From Anaerolineales bacterium (GTDB lineage Bacteria > Chloroflexota > Anaerolineae > Anaerolineales > UBA11858), in the NCBI GenBank assembly GCA_041686005.1, contig JAWLER010000006.1, forward strand, positions 17,635-81,634: a DNA stretch of 64,000 bases, written 5' to 3'. Shown here piece by piece: positions 1,633 through 19,769 of the stretch. Below the pieces are notes generated by a model. The model had not been told where the DNA came from, searched no databases, and was given only the letters and a program-made list of their open reading frames with translations. A program made the position numbers and the translations under genes. The stretch's first letter is position 1. Every line of letters begins with the position of its first letter.

Positions 1633-2499
1633 ATGGTGAGTACGAGTTCATTTCGATTTGGAACGGTTGGAACACCGCTCTCTAAACCCAAAAGCCCGGG
1701 GGGGACCGTTGGGGGGGTGATCCACATCCGGGAGTTAGGGTTGGATGCCATGGAGATTGGCTGGGTCCGGTCGGTCCGTGTGTCGGACAAGACATGTGCG
1801 GAAATCAAAGCCGCAGCTGAGGAGCATGATGTCCATCTAAGTGTGCACGCCCCGTATTACATCAATCTCAACGCCGATGAAGAGGAGTGGCCCAAATCAC
1901 GGGAGCGTTTGATGGACGCCGCCAGGGCCGGGTTTAAGTCAGGGGCGACGGACATCATCTTTCATCCCGGAACATATTTTGACCGACCCCCGGAAGAGGT
2001 TCTGAAGCTGGTCATCCCGCGATTGGAAGGCTGCCTTGAGGAGTTAGGCGAGGAGGGGGTTTCGGTCATCTTGCGGCCGGAGACCATGGGCAAAGGGGCC
2101 ATGTTGGGATCCCTGGAAGACACATTGGAGATGAGCCGACTGCCGGGCGTGGAACCTTGCCTTGACTTCGCTCATCTTCACGCTCGACCCGGTGATGGGA
2201 GCATGAATTCATATGATGAATGGATGGATGCGTTGGAACACTACGAGGGGGTGTTGGGTTCGGATGCTTTGGCCCGCATTCATTGTCATGTTTCGGGTAT
2301 TGACTATACCGAAAAAGGGGAGCAAAACCACCTCAACTTTGAGGAAGCGGATCTTGATTTGGAAGCGCTGCTGCGCGCTTTACAGGCTGCGGGAGCGAAA
2401 GGCCGGCTGTTGTGTGAAAGCCCCATCCTGGAGGAAGATGCCCTGGTGATGAGGGATCGCTGGTTTGAAATCAGCGGGGAAAACCGGGGGGAGGACTGA
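1633..2499 (+). CDS. AP endonuclease family 2 / xylose-isomerase-like TIM-barrel protein (endonuclease IV-like)
   Basis: 288 aa. The spacing of metal-ligand motifs (VHAPYYINL, IFHPG, LRPET, DFAHLHAR, HCHVSG) resembles Nfo-type TIM barrels. The exact activity is not assignable. Confidence 0.55.
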   Translation: MVSTSSFRFGTVGTPLSKPKSPGGTVGGVIHIRELGLDAMEIGWVRSVRVSDKTCAEIKAAAEEHDVHLSVHAPYYINLNADEEEWPKSRERLMDAARAGFKSGATDIIFHPGTYFDRPPEEVLKLVIPRLEGCLEELGEEGVSVILRPETMGKGAMLGSLEDTLEMSRLPGVEPCLDFAHLHARPGDGSMNSYDEWMDALEHYEGVLGSDALARIHCHVSGIDYTEKGEQNHLNFEEADLDLEALLRALQAAGAKGRLLCESPILEEDALVMRDRWFEISGENRGED

Positions 2500-2504
2500 G
2501 AGCG

Positions 2505-3137
2505 GTGTCTTTGGGGATAGACCGGATGAGTGAAAGAACCTATGGTTCCCTCGCTGAGGTTCATGAGGAGATGGACCGCTGCCGTTTGTGTCTGGAAGAG
2601 GGGTATGAAATCTATCCCCCTGCTGTGTATGCGGGGGTCCCGGACGCCGAGATGATGATCATCGGGCAGGCTCCAGGGGTCACGGAAAGGGAAGCGGGGC
2701 GACCTTTTAACGCAGGAAGCGGGACGAGGTTATTCCGCTGGTTAGAGGGAGCCGGCATTGAGGAAATATGGTTCCGGGCGACGCAGTACATGACCTCCGT
2801 CACCAAGTGTTACCCCGGCCGTCAGAACACGGGGAGCGGAGATCGGGTGCCAACGAAGGCGGAGCGGATCTTATGTCGCCCTTACCTGGCGCATGAGATC
2901 CAGTTCGTCGATCCCCGGGTGATCATCCCGGTGGGGCGGGTGGCGATCAACTTGTATTTCCCCACCACACGCAACCTGACTGAAATCGTGGGCAGAGAGA
3001 AGGAAGTGGATGGACGGTGGGTTATCCCCCTCCCGCATTCATCGGGCGCCAGCCGCTGGCATCAACAATCGTCCAACCGGGTCTTGATTGACCAGGCTGT
3101 GAAGTTGATTAAAAAACATAAGGATCGTCTTTTCTAA
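2505..3137 (+). CDS. uracil-DNA glycosylase superfamily protein (family 4/5-like)
   Basis: 210 aa with IIGQAPG motif A, an N-terminal CRLC and a C-terminal HSSGAS (HPS-like) motif B. The start is GTG. Confidence 0.7.
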   Translation: MSLGIDRMSERTYGSLAEVHEEMDRCRLCLEEGYEIYPPAVYAGVPDAEMMIIGQAPGVTEREAGRPFNAGSGTRLFRWLEGAGIEEIWFRATQYMTSVTKCYPGRQNTGSGDRVPTKAERILCRPYLAHEIQFVDPRVIIPVGRVAINLYFPTTRNLTEIVGREKEVDGRWVIPLPHSSGASRWHQQSSNRVLIDQAVKLIKKHKDRLF

Positions 3138-3157
3138 GGGAGCATGAGGTTGACAGT

Positions 3158-3192
3158 CAAAACCAGGTCCTGAGTGTAGGACCTGGTTTTTG
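3158..3192. terminator. bidirectional intrinsic terminator between convergent genes
   Basis: AAAACCAGGTCC-tgagtgt-AGGACCTGGTTTTT is a perfect GC-rich stem flanked by an A-run and a T-run. Confidence 0.6.
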
Positions 3193-3241
3193 TGTTCTCC
3201 GTGATGGTTTGTTGGCGCAGCAGGGGGATCGATCACTGTGA

Positions 3242-4009
3242 TTACGGGACAGGCTCCTGGACAAAGTTGATGATGATCAGGTTCCGGTCGCAGGAGTCGT
3301 AGGTGTCGAAATAAATTTTATCGGAGAGGGCTAAATCGTTGGTTTGTTCGAATAATTGGATGTACAGTGCCCCCTGCGAGGCGATAGGGGCATCAGCGAG
3401 CTCCACTTCGTATGCGCCTTCGCCATAATCTTCAACATACTCTTCCACCAAGCCGGTAAAGATGAAGCGGTTGATTTCTTCCCCGCCAAGGGTTCCTTTG
3501 ACGGATACCAGGATGTCGTCGAGGGGGTTCCCTTCCTCATCGAAAACTTGACCAGCGACCCCAAGCCATTGGCAGCCTGACTCTTCGTGGGCAAAGTTCT
3601 CCATGTATTTCGGCGAATCCACCTGAAGGACGAAGGACTTATCCGAAGACGCCTGGGCTGTGGGGGTAGGGGAGGGTTCAATCGTGGGGGGAAGGGGGGT
3701 GTCAGTAGGCCCAGGTGTTTCTGTAGGGGGGAGCGTTGGAGATAAAGTGGGCGTCCATGTGGGGGGCAGCACCTCTTTTGGGGTAGGGCTGGCGGTAAAG
3801 GTTGGGACCAGAGCGGGCATGGTGGTGGGGGGAAGCGGGTTCAAACCGCTTTGGGGGTTGAAAAAAATCATCAAGAAGACCAGTCCGACAACGACTGTCC
3901 CTACCAACAACAATCCGGTGAGGATATTCCATATCAGGGCTGATGATATTTTTAGGGATGGGGAGGTCTGTTCCTCTTCCTCAATAAAATCTTGGGAGTC
4001 TATGGTCAT
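3242..4009 (-). CDS. hypothetical membrane-anchored exoprotein with a Pro/Thr-rich linker
   Basis: 255 aa: an N-terminal TM helix (LIWNILTGLLLVGTVVVGLVFLMIFF), then a PT-rich linker, then a roughly 130-aa globular C-domain. No family recognised. Confidence 0.55.
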   Translation of the reverse strand: MTIDSQDFIEEEEQTSPSLKISSALIWNILTGLLLVGTVVVGLVFLMIFFNPQSGLNPLPPTTMPALVPTFTASPTPKEVLPPTWTPTLSPTLPPTETPGPTDTPLPPTIEPSPTPTAQASSDKSFVLQVDSPKYMENFAHEESGCQWLGVAGQVFDEEGNPLDDILVSVKGTLGGEEINRFIFTGLVEEYVEDYGEGAYEVELADAPIASQGALYIQLFEQTNDLALSDKIYFDTYDSCDRNLIIINFVQEPVP

Positions 4010-5532: not shown

Positions 5533-6594
5533 ATGAAGGAAGAGTTGCAACACATCAAAGAGGAAGCGCTCCAAGCTTTGGGAGAGGTCGAGGATCAGGC
5601 AAGTTTGGAAGCGTGGCAGGTCAGCTATTTGGGGCGGAATTCTCCCTTGATGAACGTGTTCAAGAATGTGGGTGATTTGCCGGAAGAGGAACGACCTCTG
5701 GTCGGCCGCCAGGCAAATGAGGTCAAAGTTGCCCTGGAAAAGGCGCTGGAGGAGAAGGAAGAAGCACTCCACCAAGCCCAAATCCAACGCTCACTCCGGG
5801 AAGAACACATCGATGTCACCTTGCCGGGGCGCCCTAAGATCGCCGGCAACCTCCATCCCACCACCCAAACCATGCGCGAGGTGTATCGCGTTTTTAGGGA
5901 TATGGGCTTCCAGATTTACCGTTCCCGCGAGGTGGAGACGGATGAATACAACTTCCAGATGCTGAATTTCCCGCCCCACCATCCTGCGCGGGAGATGCAG
6001 GACACATTCTTCATCACCAGCGAGGAGGACCGGGGAGAGAACCCGCTTCTCCTTCGCACCCAAACCTCTCCCGGTCAGATCCATGCCATGCGGGAGTACT
6101 CAAGCGCCAACCCCGAGAACCCACCTCCAATGCGGATCATCGTCCCCGGTATGTGTTACCGTTACGAGCAGATATCCGCCCGTTACGAAATCCAATTCAA
6201 CCAGGTGGAGGGGCTGGCGGTGGGGGAGAGGATCACGTTCGGGGATCTGAAGGGGACGCTGAATGATTTTGCCCTACGCTTATTTGGCCAGGAGGTCGGG
6301 ACCCGCTTCCGAGCTTCCCATTTCCCCTTCACGGAACCCAGCGCGGAATTGGACATCGAATGCTTCCTTTGTGACGGGGAAGGCTGCTCGGTCTGCAAAG
6401 GCACAGGATGGTTGGAGATCCTGGGCTGCGGCATGGTGCACCCCACAGTGCTTGAAAATGGGGGCTATGATCCGGAAAAGTACACCGGTTTCGCGTTCGG
6501 CATGGGACCGGAGCGAATCACCATGCTCCGCCACCGCATTGAGGACATCCGCTACTTTTGGGCCAACGATCTCCGCTTTTTGGAGCAATTTTAG
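5533..6594 (+). CDS. pheS: phenylalanine--tRNA ligase alpha subunit
   Basis: 353 aa with an N-terminal coiled coil and class II core motifs (HPAREMQDTFF, RTQTSPGQIH, FRASHFPFTEPS, GCGMVHP, AFGMGPERI). Confidence 0.97.
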   Translation: MKEELQHIKEEALQALGEVEDQASLEAWQVSYLGRNSPLMNVFKNVGDLPEEERPLVGRQANEVKVALEKALEEKEEALHQAQIQRSLREEHIDVTLPGRPKIAGNLHPTTQTMREVYRVFRDMGFQIYRSREVETDEYNFQMLNFPPHHPAREMQDTFFITSEEDRGENPLLLRTQTSPGQIHAMREYSSANPENPPPMRIIVPGMCYRYEQISARYEIQFNQVEGLAVGERITFGDLKGTLNDFALRLFGQEVGTRFRASHFPFTEPSAELDIECFLCDGEGCSVCKGTGWLEILGCGMVHPTVLENGGYDPEKYTGFAFGMGPERITMLRHRIEDIRYFWANDLRFLEQF

Positions 6595-6674
6595 GGGTGG
6601 GTGCCGCGGATGCCGATCTCGATGAGCGGCGGATGGCAGGTCCATGATCATTATACATAGACTAGGAAATCGAC

Positions 6675-9224
6675 ATGAAAGTCCCAATAACTTGGCTTGA
6701 AGAATACGTGGATATCGACATGGCGATCCCTGAATTAGCGCATCGCCTGACCTTGGCCGGCTTGGAAGTGGAGGAGATCCGCTATGTGGGGTTGCCCATG
6801 CCGGAAGATGGGGGTGACAAGAGGCTGGATACGAAGATCAGTGGCTTTTCCTGGGATCCCGAGAAGATCGTCGTCGGGGCGGTCAAGGAAGTCATGCCCC
6901 ATCCCAATGCAGACCGCCTGGTGTTGTGCAGCCTGGATGATGGCGAGCAGGAGCACACCGTCCTCACCGGCGCGCCGAACCTTTTCCCTTACCTGGAGGA
7001 GGGCGAGTTGGACCCTCCCCTCAAAGTGGCCTATGCCCGGGAGGGTGCGACCATCGTCGATGCTTACAGCGAGAGCAAAGAGACGGAATACACCACCATT
7101 CAACGGAAGAAAATCCGGGGCGTGGAATCCTATTCCATGGCGTGCTCTGAGCGAGAATTGGGGATTTCGGACGAGCACGAAGGGGTGATCATCCTCGATG
7201 AGGACGCCCCTACGGGTATGCCTCTGGTGGAGTATATGGGGGATGCGGTGCTGGATATCGCCATCACCCCCAACATAGCCCGGGCAGCCAGCATCCTGGG
7301 TGTGGCCCGGGAGGTGGCAGCCATCACCGATGCGGAGTTGAAGCCGCCTTCCCTGGATGTCAAAGCGGAGGGCTCACCGATCGAGGGGCAGGTGAGGATC
7401 GAGATCACAGATCCCGAGCTCAATCCACGCTTCGTGTTGGGTTTGATCGAAAACGTAGATCAAGTCCCCAGCCCATATTGGGTGCAGCGGCGATTGCGAT
7501 TGGCGGGTATTCGGCCCATCGACAGCGTGGTGGACGCCACCAATTACACTATGCTGGAGATCGGTGAACCCTTACACGCTTTCGACTTTGACGTGCTCAA
7601 AGAACGAGCAGAAGGGGGGACGCCCACCATCATCACCCGCACCGCAAAGCCAGGGGAAACGCTGACCACCTTGGACGATGTGGAGCGCGAGTTGGATGAA
7701 TTTACAGAGTTGGTGACAGACACTGCAGGTGCCCTCTCCATCGCCGGGGTGATGGGGGGAGCGGAATCCGAGGTGGGGGAGGGGACGAAGCATGTCCTTC
7801 TGGAGGGGGCAGCCTGGAACTTCATCAACATCCATAAGACGGTCAATTCCCAGAATCTGTCCTCTGAAGCCTCGTACCGATTCGAACGGGGCGTTCACCC
7901 TGACTTGGCTTCGCAGGGCGTGCTGCGCTGTTTGGAGTGGATGCGGAAGTGGGCCGGAGGTACGGTAGCGGAGGGATTAGTGGACGAGTACCCCCTTCCC
8001 CCTCAAGATCCCGTCGTGGACCTGCTCCCCGAAGAGGTGGAGCGCTGGCTGGGGGTGGAACTCAGCCTGGCGGAAATCCAGGACCTCTTGGAGCGTTTGG
8101 CGTTCGAAGTGGAGGTTGAAGAGGGGGAGATCAGGGCGAAGACGCCGCCGCACCGCTTGGATATCGGGGAAGGGATCGTGGGCAGGGCGGACCTTTTAGA
8201 AGAAATCGCCCGGGTCTATGGATATGACAGGATTCCGGAGACCCGTTTGGCCGATGCCTTGCCCCCTCAACGAGGGAATGTGGAGCTTGATGTGGAAGAG
8301 CGGATCCGCGATATCTTGGCCGGGTTGGGCTTGCGGGAAGTGGTGACCTACCGGATTACCTCCCCGGCAGCGGAAGCGCGACGTTATCCTCCGGGTGCCC
8401 AACCTGAGGATGACCCTTATGTAACTTTAGAAAATCCCATCACCACTGATCGAACGGTGATGCGCAAAAGCCTGCTGGCAAGCGTCCTGGAAATCATGGA
8501 AAATAATTACCGGGTCCGGAAACGGATGGCCCTCTTTGAAATCGGCCCTGAATTTTACCCATCCGGAGATGAGGATGCGCTGCCAGAGGAGGTCAACCGT
8601 TTGGTGATCACCCTCACCGGGCCGCGGACGCCCCAAGCCTGGCAGGGGTCTGATACGGGGGAGATGGATTTTTATGATCTGAAAGGGATCATCGAAGCCC
8701 TGTTCCGGCGTTTGCACATTGAGGGAGTGAGAGTAGAAGAAGGAGCAGGCGTATCCTATCACCCGGGGAAATGCGCCCGCGTGCTCATTAGGGAGGAGGA
8801 AGTGGGCCTATTCGGTGAAATCCATCCTCAGGTGCGCGATCACTATGAATTTCCGGAAACGCCCGTGGTGGCCGCGGAATTTTCCGTGGAGAAGATCATT
8901 GATCAGGTCTCCAAACTGTATGATGTGGCATCCATCCCCGAACAGCCCCCCGTTTTGGAGGACCTCGCCGTTGTCGTCGAGGAAAGCGTCCCTGCCATAG
9001 CGGTTGCCGATCTCATCCGCCACACAGCCGGGGATATCCTGGCTGACGTGCGCTTGTTCGATGTCTACCGCGGGGATCAAATTGAGGAGGGTAAGAAAAG
9101 CTTGGCATACAACCTGGTCTATCAGCACCCGGAGCGCACCCTGACCGATGAAGAGGTCAGGAAAGTGCGGGAGAGCATTCTCTACCGCTTAGAAAGGGAG
9201 CTGGACGCACACCTGCGGGCTTAA
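6675..9224 (+). CDS. pheT: phenylalanine--tRNA ligase beta subunit
   Basis: 849 aa. It begins MKVPITWLEEYVD (typical PheT N-terminus) and has tRNA-binding, B3/4, B5 and C-terminal FDX-ACB-like regions. It follows pheS. Confidence 0.97.
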   Translation: MKVPITWLEEYVDIDMAIPELAHRLTLAGLEVEEIRYVGLPMPEDGGDKRLDTKISGFSWDPEKIVVGAVKEVMPHPNADRLVLCSLDDGEQEHTVLTGAPNLFPYLEEGELDPPLKVAYAREGATIVDAYSESKETEYTTIQRKKIRGVESYSMACSERELGISDEHEGVIILDEDAPTGMPLVEYMGDAVLDIAITPNIARAASILGVAREVAAITDAELKPPSLDVKAEGSPIEGQVRIEITDPELNPRFVLGLIENVDQVPSPYWVQRRLRLAGIRPIDSVVDATNYTMLEIGEPLHAFDFDVLKERAEGGTPTIITRTAKPGETLTTLDDVERELDEFTELVTDTAGALSIAGVMGGAESEVGEGTKHVLLEGAAWNFINIHKTVNSQNLSSEASYRFERGVHPDLASQGVLRCLEWMRKWAGGTVAEGLVDEYPLPPQDPVVDLLPEEVERWLGVELSLAEIQDLLERLAFEVEVEEGEIRAKTPPHRLDIGEGIVGRADLLEEIARVYGYDRIPETRLADALPPQRGNVELDVEERIRDILAGLGLREVVTYRITSPAAEARRYPPGAQPEDDPYVTLENPITTDRTVMRKSLLASVLEIMENNYRVRKRMALFEIGPEFYPSGDEDALPEEVNRLVITLTGPRTPQAWQGSDTGEMDFYDLKGIIEALFRRLHIEGVRVEEGAGVSYHPGKCARVLIREEEVGLFGEIHPQVRDHYEFPETPVVAAEFSVEKIIDQVSKLYDVASIPEQPPVLEDLAVVVEESVPAIAVADLIRHTAGDILADVRLFDVYRGDQIEEGKKSLAYNLVYQHPERTLTDEEVRKVRESILYRLERELDAHLRA

Positions 9225-13494: not shown

Positions 13495-13588
13495 GATATT
13501 ATCGGTAGGATCGGCCATCTTCTGGTTGATGGATTACGATCAGGGAGTCGGGTTCGGTGGATTTTCCAAAAAGCAGGAGAGATAACAA

Positions 13589-15829
13589 ATGAAACGAATC
13601 GGAATTCTGACCAGTGGTGGAGATGCGCCAGGTATGAACGCTGCCATCCGATCAGCCGTTCGTACCGCGTTGGATCGGGGGTTGGAGATCTACGCCATCC
13701 GGGATGGGTATCAAGGACTGGTGAACGGCGGAGATCGAATCCAAAAGATGGAATGGGATGCGGTCGGGGGCATTCTGCATCAAGGGGGAACGGTGATCGG
13801 CACAGCGCGATGTGATGAATTCGAGACCAAAGAAGGAAGGCGGAAAGCGGCCAAAACCCTGGTAGAACATGGCATCACAGGGTTGATCGTCATCGGGGGG
13901 GATGGGAGTCTGCTGGGCGCCTCCATTTTTCACAGTGAATGGCCGGATCTGCTTGAGTCCCTTGTGGAAGAGGGTGAGCTCTCGGCTGAAGATGTCTCAT
14001 CGCATCCGGAGATAAGCATCGTGGGCTTGCCGGGATCCATTGACAACGATATCTACGGTACCGATATGACCATCGGTGCGGATACCGCCCTGCATCGTAT
14101 TACAGAAGCCGTTGATGCCATCACCAGCACGGCCGCCAGCCACCAGCGGAGTTTCGTGGTCGAGGTCATGGGCAGGAATTGTGGATATCTGGCGATGATG
14201 GGCGCATTGGCCGCCGGGGCGGACTGGGTTTTCGTCCCCGAAAAACCTCCCCATCCGGAAGAATGGAAAGAGGAAATGTGCCGGTCCCTGAAAGCGGGCC
14301 GCAAGGCAGGACGGCGGGACAGCATCGTCGTCTTGGCGGAAGGGGCGATAGACAGTGAAGGGAACCCCATCACCAGTCAGGATGTCAAGGAAACGTTGGA
14401 GAAGAGGATCGGGGAAGAGACGAGGATCACTATTCTGGGTCATGTCCAGCGTGGAGGGTCTCCCAGCGCCTACGACCGCAATTTGGGTACGATCCTGGGT
14501 CATGCCGCGGTTCACAAGTTGTTGGAGATCGAGCCAGATGACGAACCGGTCTTGATCGGTATGCGAGGAAACCGGGTGGTGGACACGACGCTTCCTGAAT
14601 GCGTGGAGAAGACCAGGCAGGCCACCAAGCTCGTCAAGGAAAAGGAATTCCAACAGGTGACGGAACTCCGCGGGGAGAGTTTTAATTCCGCGTATAACAT
14701 CATGCAGACCTTGTCTCAATCCCATCCAGAGCCAGTGGAGGTCCCTCCCAAACCTTTGCGGATTGGGGTCATGCACTCCGGAGGACCGGCGCCAGGTATG
14801 AACACGGCTGTTCGGGCGGCTGTGCGGTGGGGGAAGAACCAGGGCCATGTCATGCTCGGGGTCTATAACGGTTTTCAGGGTCTGATCAAGGGAGAATTGG
14901 AGGAGTTAAGCTGGATGGATGTAGGGGGGTTGGTGAATCAGGGCGGGGCGGAATTGGGGACCAATCGGACCCTGCCGTCCAGTGGTGATTACTATGCCAT
15001 TGCCCGTAATTTAGAGAAAGAGGGTTTGGATGGCTTGCTGGTCATCGGCGGGGAGGCGGCTTATGACGGAGCCTATGAGATGTTCAGGCGGCGCCGTGAA
15101 TTTCCGAATTTTAATATCCCCATCGTCTGCCTCCCGGCTACTATTGACAACGATCGACCCGGCTCAGAATTGAGCATCGGCGCAGACACGGCGCTGAACA
15201 GCATCATCGAGGCGGTGGATAAAATCAAGCAGTCCGCTGTGGCCTCGCGGCGCTGTTTTGTGGTCGAGACCATGGGCGGATATTGTGGGTACCTGACATT
15301 GATGGGCGGCATGGCGACCGGAGCGGAGCGGGTCTACCTCCATGAGGAAGGGACCAATCTGAAAGATTTGCAGGATGATGTCGATCACCTGGTGACCGGC
15401 TTCAAGCAGGGAAAACGCTTGGGATTGATGATCCGCAACGAGTATGCTCATAACGTCTATACTACGGATTTCATGGTCCGTCTCTTCGAAGCCGAGGGGA
15501 AAGAATTATTTGATGTCCGCCAGGCAATCCTGGGGCACCTCCAGCAAGGTGGCAACCCCACCCCCTTTGACCGCATTCAGGCCGCTCTCCTGGCTGTCCG
15601 ATGTGTGGATTTCATCATCGATGAGGCGATGTCCGACGAACCCAGGAGCGTTTTCATGGGCAGGGAGGGAGGCAAGATCCACTTTACGGGGATGGAGGAT
15701 TACCCCCGCTCGGAGGACCGAGATTTTGGGCGGCCGAAAAACCAGTGGTGGATGGATTTGCGGCCCATCGCCCACGTCTTAGCTCAACCGGGTCCTAGCC
15801 AAGGGGAGAAGAAGGAGCCTACGGCTTAG
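13589..15829 (+). CDS. pfk: ATP-dependent 6-phosphofructokinase, tandem two-domain (eukaryote-type) form
   Basis: 746 aa. The N-half has catalytic motifs GGDAPGMNAAIR, GGDGS, PGSIDND, MGRNCGYLA and GHVQRGG. The C-half has GGPAPGMNTAVR, GGEAAY, PATIDND, MGGYCGYL and GHLQQGG. Confidence 0.9.
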   Translation: MKRIGILTSGGDAPGMNAAIRSAVRTALDRGLEIYAIRDGYQGLVNGGDRIQKMEWDAVGGILHQGGTVIGTARCDEFETKEGRRKAAKTLVEHGITGLIVIGGDGSLLGASIFHSEWPDLLESLVEEGELSAEDVSSHPEISIVGLPGSIDNDIYGTDMTIGADTALHRITEAVDAITSTAASHQRSFVVEVMGRNCGYLAMMGALAAGADWVFVPEKPPHPEEWKEEMCRSLKAGRKAGRRDSIVVLAEGAIDSEGNPITSQDVKETLEKRIGEETRITILGHVQRGGSPSAYDRNLGTILGHAAVHKLLEIEPDDEPVLIGMRGNRVVDTTLPECVEKTRQATKLVKEKEFQQVTELRGESFNSAYNIMQTLSQSHPEPVEVPPKPLRIGVMHSGGPAPGMNTAVRAAVRWGKNQGHVMLGVYNGFQGLIKGELEELSWMDVGGLVNQGGAELGTNRTLPSSGDYYAIARNLEKEGLDGLLVIGGEAAYDGAYEMFRRRREFPNFNIPIVCLPATIDNDRPGSELSIGADTALNSIIEAVDKIKQSAVASRRCFVVETMGGYCGYLTLMGGMATGAERVYLHEEGTNLKDLQDDVDHLVTGFKQGKRLGLMIRNEYAHNVYTTDFMVRLFEAEGKELFDVRQAILGHLQQGGNPTPFDRIQAALLAVRCVDFIIDEAMSDEPRSVFMGREGGKIHFTGMEDYPRSEDRDFGRPKNQWWMDLRPIAHVLAQPGPSQGEKKEPTA

Positions 15830-15905: not shown

Positions 15906-18900
15906 TTAGCTGTAAGGCAATTTCTCCACCTGGACGTTTTCTTCTCCGATCATCTCTTGTAGATCGTTGATCAGGGCCGGGGACAGTTTCGTGGTGGCAT
16001 TGGGAAATTCCAGCAAATGGCTGCGATCATCCTCTATGATCTGGAACGCAAATTGATCTTCACCGGCGTAGCTGATCAAGGTGCCGTAAATTTGCCGCAG
16101 GCGCAGCTTGTCTCTCAATTTATCGCCGTCTTGTTTTAAGATGATGGTCACCATGTAGTCGGCATCTTCCTCAAATTCCCAGGTAGGCTGGGATGGTTGA
16201 GGTTCGGCTGCCTCTTCCTGTGGACGCTCTTGGAGCGGCTCCGGTCGGTCTTCCCCAGGTGGTGGCTCCTGGCTGGTTTGATCTGAAGGGGATGTCTCCG
16301 ATGTTTGGGGACTGGCCTCCTCAAGCGTTGTTGGTGGGAGGTCCTCCATATCCTCCCCTTGCACGGGATCCGATTTGAGCGGTTCTTCGCCCTCATCCCA
16401 ATCCTGGGGGAATGGGTCGGGTGGGGGAGGTGAGGAGGCCTCCAAAGCAGCCCCCTCTTCTGGAGGGGGGTCTATCTTCTGAGGGGTTTGCTCGAGGTCG
16501 GGTCGGTCCTCTTCGTGTTGAGACCCCCTTTCCCTTCCCTCTTCCTCTCTTCCCGGTTGATTTTTTTGGGGATCCGCAGGTTGCAATTTCGTGGTCACCC
16601 GGTTGACAAGCACTTTTGGCTCGCCGCGTTGTGTGTCGACTTTTCCAGTGACCTTAATGATTTCGTCAAATTGGATTAATTCCGCGTTCTTTTTCCATAC
16701 GGAGGGGAAGATGACCAGGTCAATGGTCCCCTGGATATCTTCAATGGTCACGAATGCCATTGGGTTGCCATTTTTCGTCTGGTGGTGACGGATGTGGGTC
16801 ACAATTCCGGCCACTGTGACCTGCTCATGGTGGTTTGCTTCCCCTAACTCCTGGGAAAAATAAGTCACATTCTGCTTCAAAGCATCGATCACAGTGCTCA
16901 AGGGGTGGTCGGAGACATACAGTCCAATCAGTTCCTTTTCCCAGTCCAGTTGAGCGCGGCGGCTGATCTTCGCCGGTGTGTCTGGAAGCTCGATGCGTTC
17001 CTCAAGGCCAGAGTCCCCTCCGAACATGGATATTTGCCCGGCATCCCGGGCCTGGAACGTGGCTGAGCTGATGGCGATGATGGAATCCATGGCTTCTAAG
17101 AGGGCAGGGCGCTCTCCAAAATCGTCTAGGGCGCCGACCTGGATTAAGCATTCCAGAGCCCTTTTCCCCACCCGGCGGAGATCCACCCGTTTCAAGAAGT
17201 CATTGATGTCCCTGAAGGGTTTTTCGCCCCGCCCTTCCTTAATGGCGTTCACCGGACCCTCACCTACGTTCTTCACCGCACCCAGTCCAAAGCGAATGGC
17301 GGATTCCCCCTGGGGTCCGTCCTCAATGGTGAATCCCCAATCGCTGTAATTGACATTGGGGGGCAGGATTTCTATGCCCATTTGCCTGCATTCCGAGGCG
17401 TAGAGGGTGACTTTATCGGTGTTGTTCTGATAAACGGTCAGCAGGGCGGTCATGTATTCCACGGGGTAGTGGGTTTTCAGGTACGCGGTTTGCACGGAGA
17501 TCAGCCCGTAGTCCGCTGCATGGGCCTTATTAAATCCGTAGCGGGCGAATTTTTCCCAATCAGTGAATATCTGCCTGGCTGTGTCCCTGTCAATCCCCTT
17601 TTCCACAGCGCCTTGGATGAATTTTTTACGGTGTTTGATGAGCTGTTTTTTCTTCTTTTTAGCCACCGCTTTTCGCAAGCTGTCCGCTTCCGAGGGCTCA
17701 TATCCTGCCAGCTCCACGGCGCTGTGCATGATCTGTTCCTGGTAAACGGGGAGGCCGTACGTCTCTTCATAAATAGAGGCCAAGTCCGGATGGCGGTAAC
17801 TGATCTTTTCTTTCCCGTGCATGCGGCTGATGTAATCAGGGATGAAATCCATCGGTCCCGGGCGGTATAAGGCGACCATAGCGATGACATGAGCCAGCTT
17901 TTGGGGTTTCATGACCTTCAGATAGCGGCGCATCCCGGAGCTCTCCACCTGGAAGAGGCCGATCGTTTCCCCCCGGCCAATCAGCTCATAGGTCTCCGGA
18001 TCGTCCGTGGGGATATTGTCCAGGGTGAGTTCTATCCCATGCCTTTCTTTGATCAGTTTGCTGGCCCTGGTCATGATGGTCAATGTCGACAAGCCCAGGA
18101 AATCGATTTTGAGCAATCCCAGACGATCGATCACTGACATCTCATATTGAGTGACAGTGTCGATAGGGGTGTCGCCGATGTTCCCAGTTGGGCGGTGTAA
18201 GGGGGCATATTCCACCACAGGTTTATCCGTGACCACCACGCCGGCCGCGTGGGTGCCCGCGTTGCGGACCGTGCCTTCCACTCCTTTGGCGGTTTCAATT
18301 AAGTCCTGCAGGTAAGGCGCATCCTCATAGAGCTGCTTGAATTCGGTGGATTTCTCTAAGGCCTCTTCAATGCTCATGGGGGGCAGGTTGGGTATGGTTT
18401 TTGCCACCCGGTCCACCTCTTGGAGGGGGATGTCCATCACCCGGCCCACATCCCGAATGGCGGCTCTGGCTTTCATGGTCCCGAAGGTGATGATTTGGGC
18501 TACCTTATCATGTCCGTATTTATCTGCACAGTATTGCATCAATTCTGCCCGCCGGTCATCCGGGAAATCAAGGTCGATATCCGGCATGTTGACCCGGCCG
18601 GGGTTCAGGAAGCGTTCAAAGATCAGCTTGTGTTTCAAGGGGTCAATGGGGGTGATTTCCAGGGCGTAGGCGACGATAGAGCCCGCGGCGGAACCGCGCG
18701 CGTTGTACCAGATGCCCCGCTTTTGCGCGTACTGGCAGATGTCCCAGACGATCAAGAAGTAGGCATCGAACTCCATATCGCTGATGATTTTCAGCTCATA
18801 ATTGAGGCGTTCCTGTACTTCTGGGGTGTCCGCCCTGCCCTGGTACCTCTTTTGGATCCCTTTTTCACATAATTCTCTTAAATAGGACTTCGGGGTTTTC

Positions 18901-19769
18901 CCATCAGGAACGGGGAAATGCGGCAAGTGGTATTCCTGGAAACTGAGGTCGACCTCGCAGCGCTCCGCAATATGGAGTGTGTTCTCTATGGCCCCCGGTA
19001 CTTCCGCGAAGAGCGTCTTCATCTCTTGGGGTGTCCTCAGGTAATAGGAGTCATCCGTCATCCGCATGCGGTCCGGGTCATTGAGTAATTTTCCTGTTTT
19101 GATGGCCAGGAGGACGTCCTGGAGCTTGGCGTCGGCGGGGTTCACATAGTGAACATCGTTGGTTGCGATATACCGGGCATCATAGCGCGGGCCCATATCC
19201 AAAAGGGTTTGATTGATCTTTTCCAGTTCTGGTATGTCGTGTTTTTGAAGTTCCAGGAAAAAACGATCCGGGCCAAAGACATCGAAATACCAATCCAACT
19301 TGTTGCGGGCTTCTTCAAGCTGACCTCTTTTAATGGCCCGGGGGATTTCCGCGGACATACAACCTGAGGTGGCGATCAAACCATTGGCATGGGCGGCAAG
19401 GTAGTCACGGTCAATGCGGGGGTAGTAATAGAAGCCTTCCAATTGGGCGGCAGAGGTGATCTTCAATAAATTTTTGTAGCCTTGTTGGTTTTCCGCCAGC
19501 AGCAACAAGTGGGAGGCTTGTTTGTCTTTCCGGGGATCGCGGTCCTTCATGCCCCGGGGAGCGAGGTAGGCTTCCACGCCGATGATCGGCTTGATGCCTA
19601 CCTCCTTCGCCACATGATAAAAATCGACCACGCCGTACATCGTGCCGTGGTCAGTGATGGCTATGGCGGGCATCTCTAGTTCTTTAGCTCGTTGGACCAG
19701 ATCGTCAATGTCGCTAAAACCATCTAATATGGAATATTCTGTGTGAACGTGGAGATGGGCAAATGACAT
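15906..19769 (-). CDS. dnaE: DNA polymerase III alpha subunit (DnaE) with an unusual C-terminal extension
   Basis: 1287 aa with an N-terminal PHP domain (FAHLHVHTEYSILDG), a Pol III alpha core, an HhH region and an OB fold. These are followed by a roughly 140-aa acidic/Pro-rich tract and a roughly 85-aa terminal module. Confidence 0.95.
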   Translation of the reverse strand: MSFAHLHVHTEYSILDGFSDIDDLVQRAKELEMPAIAITDHGTMYGVVDFYHVAKEVGIKPIIGVEAYLAPRGMKDRDPRKDKQASHLLLLAENQQGYKNLLKITSAAQLEGFYYYPRIDRDYLAAHANGLIATSGCMSAEIPRAIKRGQLEEARNKLDWYFDVFGPDRFFLELQKHDIPELEKINQTLLDMGPRYDARYIATNDVHYVNPADAKLQDVLLAIKTGKLLNDPDRMRMTDDSYYLRTPQEMKTLFAEVPGAIENTLHIAERCEVDLSFQEYHLPHFPVPDGKTPKSYLRELCEKGIQKRYQGRADTPEVQERLNYELKIISDMEFDAYFLIVWDICQYAQKRGIWYNARGSAAGSIVAYALEITPIDPLKHKLIFERFLNPGRVNMPDIDLDFPDDRRAELMQYCADKYGHDKVAQIITFGTMKARAAIRDVGRVMDIPLQEVDRVAKTIPNLPPMSIEEALEKSTEFKQLYEDAPYLQDLIETAKGVEGTVRNAGTHAAGVVVTDKPVVEYAPLHRPTGNIGDTPIDTVTQYEMSVIDRLGLLKIDFLGLSTLTIMTRASKLIKERHGIELTLDNIPTDDPETYELIGRGETIGLFQVESSGMRRYLKVMKPQKLAHVIAMVALYRPGPMDFIPDYISRMHGKEKISYRHPDLASIYEETYGLPVYQEQIMHSAVELAGYEPSEADSLRKAVAKKKKKQLIKHRKKFIQGAVEKGIDRDTARQIFTDWEKFARYGFNKAHAADYGLISVQTAYLKTHYPVEYMTALLTVYQNNTDKVTLYASECRQMGIEILPPNVNYSDWGFTIEDGPQGESAIRFGLGAVKNVGEGPVNAIKEGRGEKPFRDINDFLKRVDLRRVGKRALECLIQVGALDDFGERPALLEAMDSIIAISSATFQARDAGQISMFGGDSGLEERIELPDTPAKISRRAQLDWEKELIGLYVSDHPLSTVIDALKQNVTYFSQELGEANHHEQVTVAGIVTHIRHHQTKNGNPMAFVTIEDIQGTIDLVIFPSVWKKNAELIQFDEIIKVTGKVDTQRGEPKVLVNRVTTKLQPADPQKNQPGREEEGRERGSQHEEDRPDLEQTPQKIDPPPEEGAALEASSPPPPDPFPQDWDEGEEPLKSDPVQGEDMEDLPPTTLEEASPQTSETSPSDQTSQEPPPGEDRPEPLQERPQEEAAEPQPSQPTWEFEEDADYMVTIILKQDGDKLRDKLRLRQIYGTLISYAGEDQFAFQIIEDDRSHLLEFPNATTKLSPALINDLQEMIGEENVQVEKLPYS

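Follow-up and report, generated by a model that had tools for sequence, protein, structure and literature searches.

Textbooks present the tandem duplication of phosphofructokinase (PFK) as a eukaryotic innovation. Mammalian PFK-1, known from structures of PFKM (4omt), PFKP (4u1r/4xyj), PFKL (8w2g/7lw1) and the rabbit enzyme (3o8l), is a two-domain chain with a catalytic N-half, whereas single-domain bacterial PfkA (E. coli 1pfk, G. stearothermophilus 3pfk/6pfk) is ~320 amino acids long and forms a homotetramer of single domains. A 2025 review of the PFK superfamily describes tandem duplication as a feature of eukaryotes only (PMC12203962). The fused form is also on record in bacteria. Chloroflexus aggregans, a cultured member of the Chloroflexota, has a 747-residue ‘6PF1K_euk’ PFK, Cagg_2702, that Kawai et al. 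(2021) called “eukaryotic type… present in many Chloroflexota genomes” (PMC8004040). Full-length tandem PFKs also occur in the Actinomycetaceae, where the hosts are cultured. Here we analyze such a gene in a 64,000-nucleotide stretch of DNA (the window) from an Anaerolineales bacterium of the phylum Chloroflexota (contig JAWLER010000006.1, positions 17,635 to 81,634). Drawing on its architecture, residues, duplication history, selection and genomic context, we propose, with a probability of about 85%, that this gene encodes a chromosomal, vertically inherited, ATP-dependent two-domain 6-phosphofructokinase in which the N-half is catalytic and the C-half allosteric.

The complete coding sequence is a single ATG-initiated open reading frame at 13589..15829 on the + strand, and its product has 746 residues in two PFK domains, not the ~320-residue architecture of single-domain PfkA. 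Pfam PF00365 matches the protein twice (E 7.5e-203), bearing out the two fused halves read in a first-pass annotation that was made from the sequence alone. The NCBIfam model TIGR02478 (‘6PF1K_euk’) scores 987.2 bits against a curated cutoff of 708.4, and it does so in one stretch, with residues 2-733 lying on profile positions 1-741 of 744. The single-domain PfkA model TIGR02482 matches each half separately, but TIGR02478 gives the whole chain a much higher score. The model for pyrophosphate-dependent PFK, TIGR02477, gives only 114 bits against a cutoff of 588, and the N-half has no Asp104/Lys124-type donor signature.

The closest solved structures are human and rabbit muscle PFK (4omt and 3o8l, E ~1e-229; 5e-230 for 4omt). 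In the phmmer alignment, residues 2-733 are colinear with muscle PFK residues 16-754, and the colinearity extends across the linker and into the C-terminal PKxQWW helix that both enzymes share. Identity over the full length is 48% to human PFKM and 46-48% across mammalian PFK-1. An AlphaFold2 model (mean predicted local distance difference test score, pLDDT, 89.3; predicted template modeling score, pTM, 0.90) matched human PFKP, PFKL and PFKM over the whole chain in Foldseek, with a TM score of 0.95 and a root-mean-square deviation of 1.6-2.0 Å over ~735 columns. Single-domain bacterial PFKs covered half of the model only (TMq ~0.4). Because the protein exceeds the TIGR02478 cutoff, aligns over its full length with solved eukaryotic PFKs and superimposes on them with a TM score of 0.95, we conclude that it is a genuine eukaryote-architecture PFK, as the first-pass annotation had held.

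The chain divides into four segments. An E. coli PfkA residue map defines the N-half as a catalytic PFK domain (residues 1-345; 13589..14623, +). The linker (residues 346-388; 14624..14752, +) was delimited by its low conservation, its alignment to the human linker and the modeled helices at 335-375; it is the least conserved segment, its identity being 72-88% among close relatives and falling to 30-42% among more distant proteins. The residue map and a tree mark the C-half (residues 389-733; 14753..15787, +) as a degenerate PFK domain, presumably regulatory, with a retained sugar-phosphate pocket. Last comes a C-terminal tail (residues 734-746 plus the stop codon; 15788..15829, +), predicted to be disordered from pLDDT values below 50 at residues 736-746. 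The stretch just before this tail, GRPKNQWWMDLRPIAHVLA (714-732), occurs once in the protein, and its PKNQWWMDLRP pairs with PKEQWWLKLRP in the muscle PFK alignment; the parallel with animals that had been noticed at the C-terminus therefore holds. The agreement in motifs and alignment with muscle PFK is far beyond chance. The ends of the chains differ. In human PFKL, ~26 residues follow the conserved helix, and residues 754-771 form a T-state ‘strap’ (PMC11345425). The window PFK has 13 residues, predicted to be disordered, after its PKNQWW...VLAQ helix and thus lacks most of this inhibitory strap, along with the N-terminal extension of the mammalian enzyme.

To compare the two halves, we used the literature numbering of E. 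coli PfkA, in which Met1 is omitted. The N-half, 46-51% identical to single-domain PfkA and sharing its fold, keeps every E. coli catalytic residue: G11, Y41, R74 (R72), D105-G106-S107 (D103-G104-S105), D152 (D127), D154 (D129), R187 (R162), M194-G195-R196 (169-171), E251 (E222), R279 (R243), H285 (H249) and R288 (R252). The four motifs reported earlier for this half are all there, once each: GGDGS at 103-107, PGSIDND at 148-154, MGRNCGYLA at 194-202 and GHVQRGG at 284-290. Glycine at positions 104 and 124 is the signature of the ATP-dependent type. In the C-half, the Mg-ATP loop is lost, with GGEAAY (residues 487-492, nucleotides 15047-15064) in place of GGDGS. The changes are D103 to E489, G104 to A490, S105 to A491, R171 to G564, R252 to Q653 (within an HLQQGG motif), Y41 to F429 and R77 to S465. 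T518, D520, D522, R555, M562, E618, R644 and H650 are kept. As first noted, GGEAAY and MGGYCGYL (562-569) each occur once. A further feature, absent from the first-pass annotation, is that the C-half reads PATIDND (residues 516-522, nucleotides 15134-15154) where animals have PATVSNN.

We next consider whether the halves descend from the same duplication as those of eukaryotes. An exhaustive HMMER scan over 1.84 billion cluster representatives supplied about 80 full-length two-domain representatives, with anchors identified by cluster names and contig context. Bacterial anchors were Arcanobacterium urinimassiliense, Lewinellaceae, other members of the Chloroflexota and several contigs whose gene neighborhoods are bacterial; eukaryotic anchors were Choanoeca, Caenorhabditis, microsporidia, Balamuthia, Cavenderia and Flabellula. 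Each protein was split at the positions of window residues 345/389, and the halves were aligned with E. coli PfkA, G. stearothermophilus PFK and a single-domain PFK from another Chloroflexota locus (L004). All trees are neighbor-joining (NJ) trees built by distance methods. All C-halves, apart from those of a few divergent proteins, fell into one clade, and once 6 divergent or independent proteins were removed, the clade uniting bacterial and eukaryotic C-halves appeared in 99% of 200 bootstraps. The window N-half grouped with other N-halves. Identities agree with this topology: 59% between the window and human N-halves and 46% between their C-halves, compared to 37% between the two halves of the window PFK and 32% between those of the human enzyme.

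Because the C-halves are monophyletic and more similar across domains of life than to their own N-halves, we conclude that the duplication is common to the window PFK and eukaryotes, with no independent bacterial event. A lineage-specific fusion of bacterial PfkA that converged on the eukaryotic architecture is not without precedent, since independent tandem PFKs do exist. Nevertheless, such an origin is very improbable here given the two groupings of the halves and the identities, and it would also have to produce a linker and PKxQWW helix colinear with the human enzyme and a full-length TIGR02478 match above cutoff. A recent duplication, with the halves as each other's closest relatives, is the outcome that the first-pass annotation had named as fatal to its view, and the halves tree and the identities reject it. 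The precedent is P0234, a 730-residue metagenomic protein that arose by tandem duplication of a PFK_mixed enzyme (TIGR02483, 833 bits), a different type of PFK. Its halves are mutual nearest relatives, and its polarity is the opposite one, with a degenerate N-half (GGRNT) and a C-half that keeps GGDD-T, MGR and HLQRGG. Three divergent two-domain PFKs of ~750 residues (P0225, from locus L012, P0258 and P0263) reach only ~434 bits on TIGR02478. They have GGNGS in the N-half and PASIDHG and GYTQRGG in the C-half, and the tree pulls their N-halves in the direction of the C-half clade.

The sampled C-halves place the degeneration of the window protein in context. Mammalian PFK-1 and the window PFK have both lost GGDGS, R171 and R252 (giving H-x-Q-Q-GG) from the C-half and kept R162, R243 and H249 in its sugar site. 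The first-pass annotation had equated the C-half changes with those of animals, and in the alignment GGEAAY does pair with GGFEAY, and MGGYCGYL with an identical MGGYCGYL. The MGG sequence, however, is limited to the window's immediate sub-clade. Because sister Chloroflexota carry MGR, MGN or MGE, and Actinomycetaceae MGR, it is not a degeneration shared with animals. At position 103, mammals have Phe and the window has Glu, a residue present in 6 of 78 sampled C-halves, including all five from the window sub-clade. Sister Chloroflexota have Trp at this position, so the Glu is derived and not a kept catalytic residue. Position 127 is Ser in 38 of the 78 and position 129 is Asn in 55, all named opisthokonts and amoebozoans being among them; where those lineages have Ser or Ala and then Asn (Ser530 and Asn in mammals), the window has Asp520 and Asp522. 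With Asp127, Asp129 and Glu103, the window C-half is thus less degenerate than that of animals.

Selection has acted on both halves. The ratio of nonsynonymous to synonymous substitution rates is 0.03-0.05 over the two and 0.03-0.04 for the C-half, indicating strong purifying selection on each. Among the close relatives L001, L005 and L006, the C-half is 92-95% identical to that of the window protein, compared to 85-90% for the N-half. In the window sub-clade, a C-half more conserved than the catalytic N-half coincides with the presence in it of E489 and of Asp at positions 127 and 129.

In the mechanism that we propose, the N-half would be the sole catalytic domain, its GGDGS loop binding Mg-ATP. 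Fructose 6-phosphate (F6P) would be bound via D152/D154, R196, E251, H285 and R288, with R187 and R279 reaching in from across the subunit interface. The C-half, as a paralog from the same ancient duplication as the eukaryotic regulatory domain, would have lost productive Mg-ATP binding while keeping the sugar-phosphate cradle, and its former active site would bind a sugar phosphate. It would then act as an allosteric module, as in eukaryotic PFK-1. One fused chain would mimic a bacterial PfkA dimer, and at least two chains would rebuild a tetramer-like assembly. We infer the ligand identities, the oligomeric state and the regulatory logic in this scheme.

The most likely occupant of the C-half pocket would be a sugar monophosphate such as F6P, or possibly fructose 1,6-bisphosphate, rather than fructose 2,6-bisphosphate, because the acidic Asp520 and Asp522 stand where most sampled eukaryotic C-halves have Ser and Asn. 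Control of the window PFK by fructose 2,6-bisphosphate seems unlikely, since the Asp127/Asp129 pair would oppose the 2-phosphate, for which Ser or another small neutral residue at 127 and Asn at 129 would leave space. Kemp's laboratory has reportedly linked Ser530 to the binding of fructose 2,6-bisphosphate, which the host bacterium is not known to make. In the human enzyme, fructose 1,6-bisphosphate has also been found in the site (PMC11345425). The interface between the halves would carry two effector sites lined by R21/R25, R409/R413, K547, E580, K606 and R610, which probably bind phosphoenolpyruvate, ADP or citrate-type effectors. Both halves retain R21 and R25, and position 54, an effector-site Arg in single-domain PfkA, is Trp in both; K547, E580, K606 and R610 come from the C-half. 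In human PFK-M, the C-terminal residues of the citrate site are K557, D591 and K617 (PMC2990764). Our hand mapping, based on the muscle PFK alignment and an effector-site table, aligns K547, E580 and K606 with these three.

The residues also leave some room for a C-half that is itself catalytic, either as a second active site or with a different activity. It retains Asp at the catalytic-base position (D520 for D127) and D522 for D129, a conservative Glu at the Mg-binding D103, R72 (as R460) and the equivalents of T125, M169, E222, R162, R243 and H249, and purifying selection acts on it more strongly than on the N-half. The near-restriction of Glu103 to the window sub-clade could be read in the same way. 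Nevertheless, we consider this possibility improbable. The replacement of G104 and S105 by Ala disrupts the GGDGS phosphate loop, the changes at R171 and R252 remove two arginines that contact the substrate or transition state, and Y41F and R77S alter contacts with ATP. The Trp103 of sister Chloroflexota marks the Glu as derived, and none of the sampled tandem C-halves has an intact GGDGS; the sole exception, the GGDD-T of P0234, belongs to an independent duplication of another PFK type. With GGDGS, R171 and R252 lost, an allosteric and noncatalytic C-half is the best reading of these residues, as was first suggested.

Several points weigh against assigning catalysis to the N-half and regulation to the C-half. 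The retention of E489, D520 and D522 in the sub-clade, together with conservation that exceeds that of the N-half, leaves a small chance of residual or altered catalysis there. A literature search for enzymology of bacterial tandem PFK members found none, and the ligand assignments are carried over by homology from the E. coli and human sites. In addition, the C. aggregans ortholog is transcribed ~140-fold below the single-domain PFK of that organism (9 compared to 1312 transcripts per million; PMC8004040), which may make it a minor or conditional isozyme. Cagg_2702 belongs to the class Chloroflexia rather than the Anaerolineae and is known from its transcript levels. We infer its orthology to the window PFK from its description and from Chloroflexia loci, where the proteins from two metagenome-assembled genomes (MAGs; L007 and L008) are 61% identical to that of the window.

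The surroundings of the gene are those of a resident bacterial locus. Upstream lie pheS, pheT, a methyltransferase gene, a UDP-glucose dehydrogenase gene and hutU; downstream are dnaE, ogt and a gene for a C39-like peptidase, and hutU and dnaE both flank the PFK gene within 100 nucleotides. The order pheT-methyltransferase-UDP-glucose dehydrogenase-hutU-PFK-dnaE-ogt-C39 is kept in four independent MAG contigs whose PFKs are 73-91% identical. The gene has a GC content of 0.568 and a GC content at third codon positions (GC3) of 0.664, and both values agree with those of its neighbors, whose GC3 is 0.65-0.69. In our reading of the sequence, a Shine-Dalgarno-like AGGAGAG lies at 13575..13581 (+), with AGGAG 9 nucleotides (AGGAGAG 7-9 nucleotides) 5′ of the ATG, consistent with bacterial translation initiation. 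A scan for promoters and terminators gave no signal above background, and tblastn detected no second PFK-like sequence in the 64 kb. The nearest relatives, at 87-96% identity, are MAG proteins labeled Anaerolineales or Chloroflexota.

Because of the housekeeping neighbors, the conserved synteny, the matching GC3 and the Shine-Dalgarno site, we conclude that the gene is native and vertically inherited in this Anaerolineales group and that it is neither a contaminant nor a recent acquisition. The protein is about as similar to human PFK (48% identity) as to the nearest non-Chloroflexota bacterial clusters (~50%), which could raise the suspicion of eukaryotic contamination, a mis-binned contig or a very recent transfer from a eukaryote. 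Synteny, composition and the ribosome-binding site rule these out, and we give them next to no credence: the gene is intronless, an eight-gene order shared by four MAGs surrounds it, and the window PFK sits in a Chloroflexota clade with 99.5% support. We conclude that the gene encodes a real and functional two-domain ‘eukaryotic-type’ ATP-PFK (TIGR02478/IPR009161) that is native to the Anaerolineales, Chloroflexota.

Related loci showed some additional features. In the Chloroflexota MAG ELA160 (JBAXBF010000029.1; L004:5968-9337), a tandem PFK at 5968-8235 is followed, with a 17-nucleotide overlap, by a gene for a 372-residue single-domain PFK of another type (PKTIDND/MGRYAGW/GHLLRGG; best NCBIfam match PFK_mixed, 413 bits, below cutoff), placing both kinds of PFK in one apparent operon. 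In an uncultured Chloroflexia MAG (CAVQOI010000008.1; L007:1669-3875), the tandem PFK match falls into two overlapping pieces, 1669-3201 and 3168-3875, which suggests a frameshift or an assembly error. The DnaE of the window (15906-19769, − strand; 1287 residues) has a low-complexity insert of ~150 residues, rich in Pro, Glu, Asp and Gln, at about residues 1065-1215, which separates the OB fold from a short segment at the C-terminus. In the syntenic loci L001, L003, L005 and L006, full-length dnaE matches span ~1290 residues and suggest that DnaE is of similar length there.

The fused PFK is widespread beyond this contig. A homology search yielded over 120 clusters (at 90% identity), all of ~740 residues and 65-96% identical to the window PFK, and every cluster with a named source was labeled Chloroflexota or Anaerolineales. 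The description of TIGR02478 reportedly gives Propionibacterium acnes as its only exception among bacteria; a literature search on this species turned up nothing of relevance. When the Arcanobacterium protein was used as the query, the two-domain form proved to be what is annotated as ‘6-phosphofructokinase’ in cultured Actinomycetaceae whose genomes are complete, including Arcanobacterium (haemolyticum, bovis, pinnipediorum), Trueperella (pyogenes, pecoris, bialowiezensis), Actinomyces (slackii, bowdenii, oricola), Flaviflexus, Actinobaculum and Ancrocorticia. These proteins, represented by those of Arcanobacterium urinimassiliense (WP_073996619.1), Trueperella pyogenes and Actinomyces slackii, are ~50% identical to the window PFK and carry the 6-phosphofructokinase name in RefSeq, just as NCBI names the relatives of the window protein. 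They come from a different phylum, and their C-halves differ in having MGR (R171) and IDNN (D127, N129); the support relating them to the Chloroflexota clade is below 20%. Proteins 87-96% identical to the window PFK are already public, the 87% one being an NCBI entry named 6-phosphofructokinase. The architecture, which the first-pass annotation had singled out as notable in a bacterium, is therefore common in this lineage and beyond and already known from the family model, routine NCBI naming, the published remark on Chloroflexota and many cultured actinomycete genomes. This is the second of the outcomes that the annotation had named as counting against its view. The window gene is a routine ortholog, from a bacterial branch that is already known but whose biochemistry is unstudied.

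We attempted to place the origin of the fusion by rooting the trees of the two halves reciprocally. In one scenario, which we can hold only tentatively, the fused PFK arose in bacteria and passed by horizontal transfer to an ancestor of Amorphea (opisthokonts and amoebozoans). Two bacterial proteins, P0162 and P0208 (the latter from Lewinellaceae), fell outside the most recent common ancestor (MRCA) of the eukaryotic sequences in ~80% of replicates in both half-trees, whereas eukaryotes fell outside the bacterial MRCA in 0-1% of replicates for most of those sampled and in 2-16% for the long-branched microsporidian P0249. Some bacterial C-halves also keep the ancestral R171, R252, D127 or D129; P0137, whose TIGR02478 score exceeds the cutoff, retains R171, R252 and D127 and has Asn at 129. 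The opposite course, a fusion in an early eukaryote (stem Amorphea) followed by an ancient transfer to bacteria and spread to Chloroflexota, Actinomycetota and others, has to contend with this rooting and with these retained residues. It draws on the position of the window clade, which 83-99% of bootstrap replicates place between Amoebozoa and Opisthokonta, surrounded by eukaryotic lineages, and on the patchy occurrence of bacterial carriers across phyla. The TIGR02478 scores of P0162 and P0208 are under the cutoff, so their basal position may be a long-branch artifact. We regard this course, too, as possible but short of probable.

The deeper branches of the trees are less well supported than the clade around the window PFK. 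The bacterial clade of Chloroflexota plus the P0122 group has 94.5% support, but the deeper groupings tested each fell below 20%, and outside the 11-member bacterial clade all splits that include the window PFK stayed under 50%. One further protein, P0171 (L017:5001-7529), is an 842-residue tandem PFK on a sparse eukaryote-like contig, with genes for ribosomal protein S11 and a protein kinase among its neighbors. In the tree it lies close to microsporidian sequences, yet it keeps Asp-Asn-Asp (D-N-D) in its C-half, like the bacterial clade. We had considered the retention of Asp127/129 only in bacteria as a marker of polarity and dropped it for this reason; with P0171, at least one eukaryote-like sequence has the motif, as the eukaryote-first course would allow. 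The half-tree rooting and the ancestral residues thus give a weak hint of a bacterial origin. The hint is weak because the window clade lies among eukaryotes, backbone support is below 20%, P0162 and P0208 are below cutoff and P0171 has D-N-D. As these are distance trees, we claim neither direction, from bacteria to eukaryotes or the reverse. In the main text of Santana-Molina et al. (2025), PFKA is only listed among enzymes donated by ‘other prokaryotic lineages’.

If the fusion did arise in bacteria, their tandem PFKs would preserve intermediate stages in the degeneration of the C-half, from R171, R252, Asp127 and Asp129 variously kept, through Q252 with Asp127/129 in the window clade, to Ser127/Asn129 in eukaryotes. 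The C-half pocket of the window PFK would then be an ancestral, F6P-type allosteric site older than signaling by fructose 2,6-bisphosphate. Hundreds of bacterial genomes carry the fused PFK, including those of the cultured pathogens Trueperella pyogenes and Arcanobacterium haemolyticum. What remains of interest is that these bacterial members are biochemically uncharacterized and could settle both the origin of the fusion and the evolution of its regulatory sites. Easily expressed, free of the eukaryotic tails and graded in the loss of catalytic residues from the C-half, they offer a practical system for learning how a duplicated active site became allosteric and for dating and placing the origin of the fusion.

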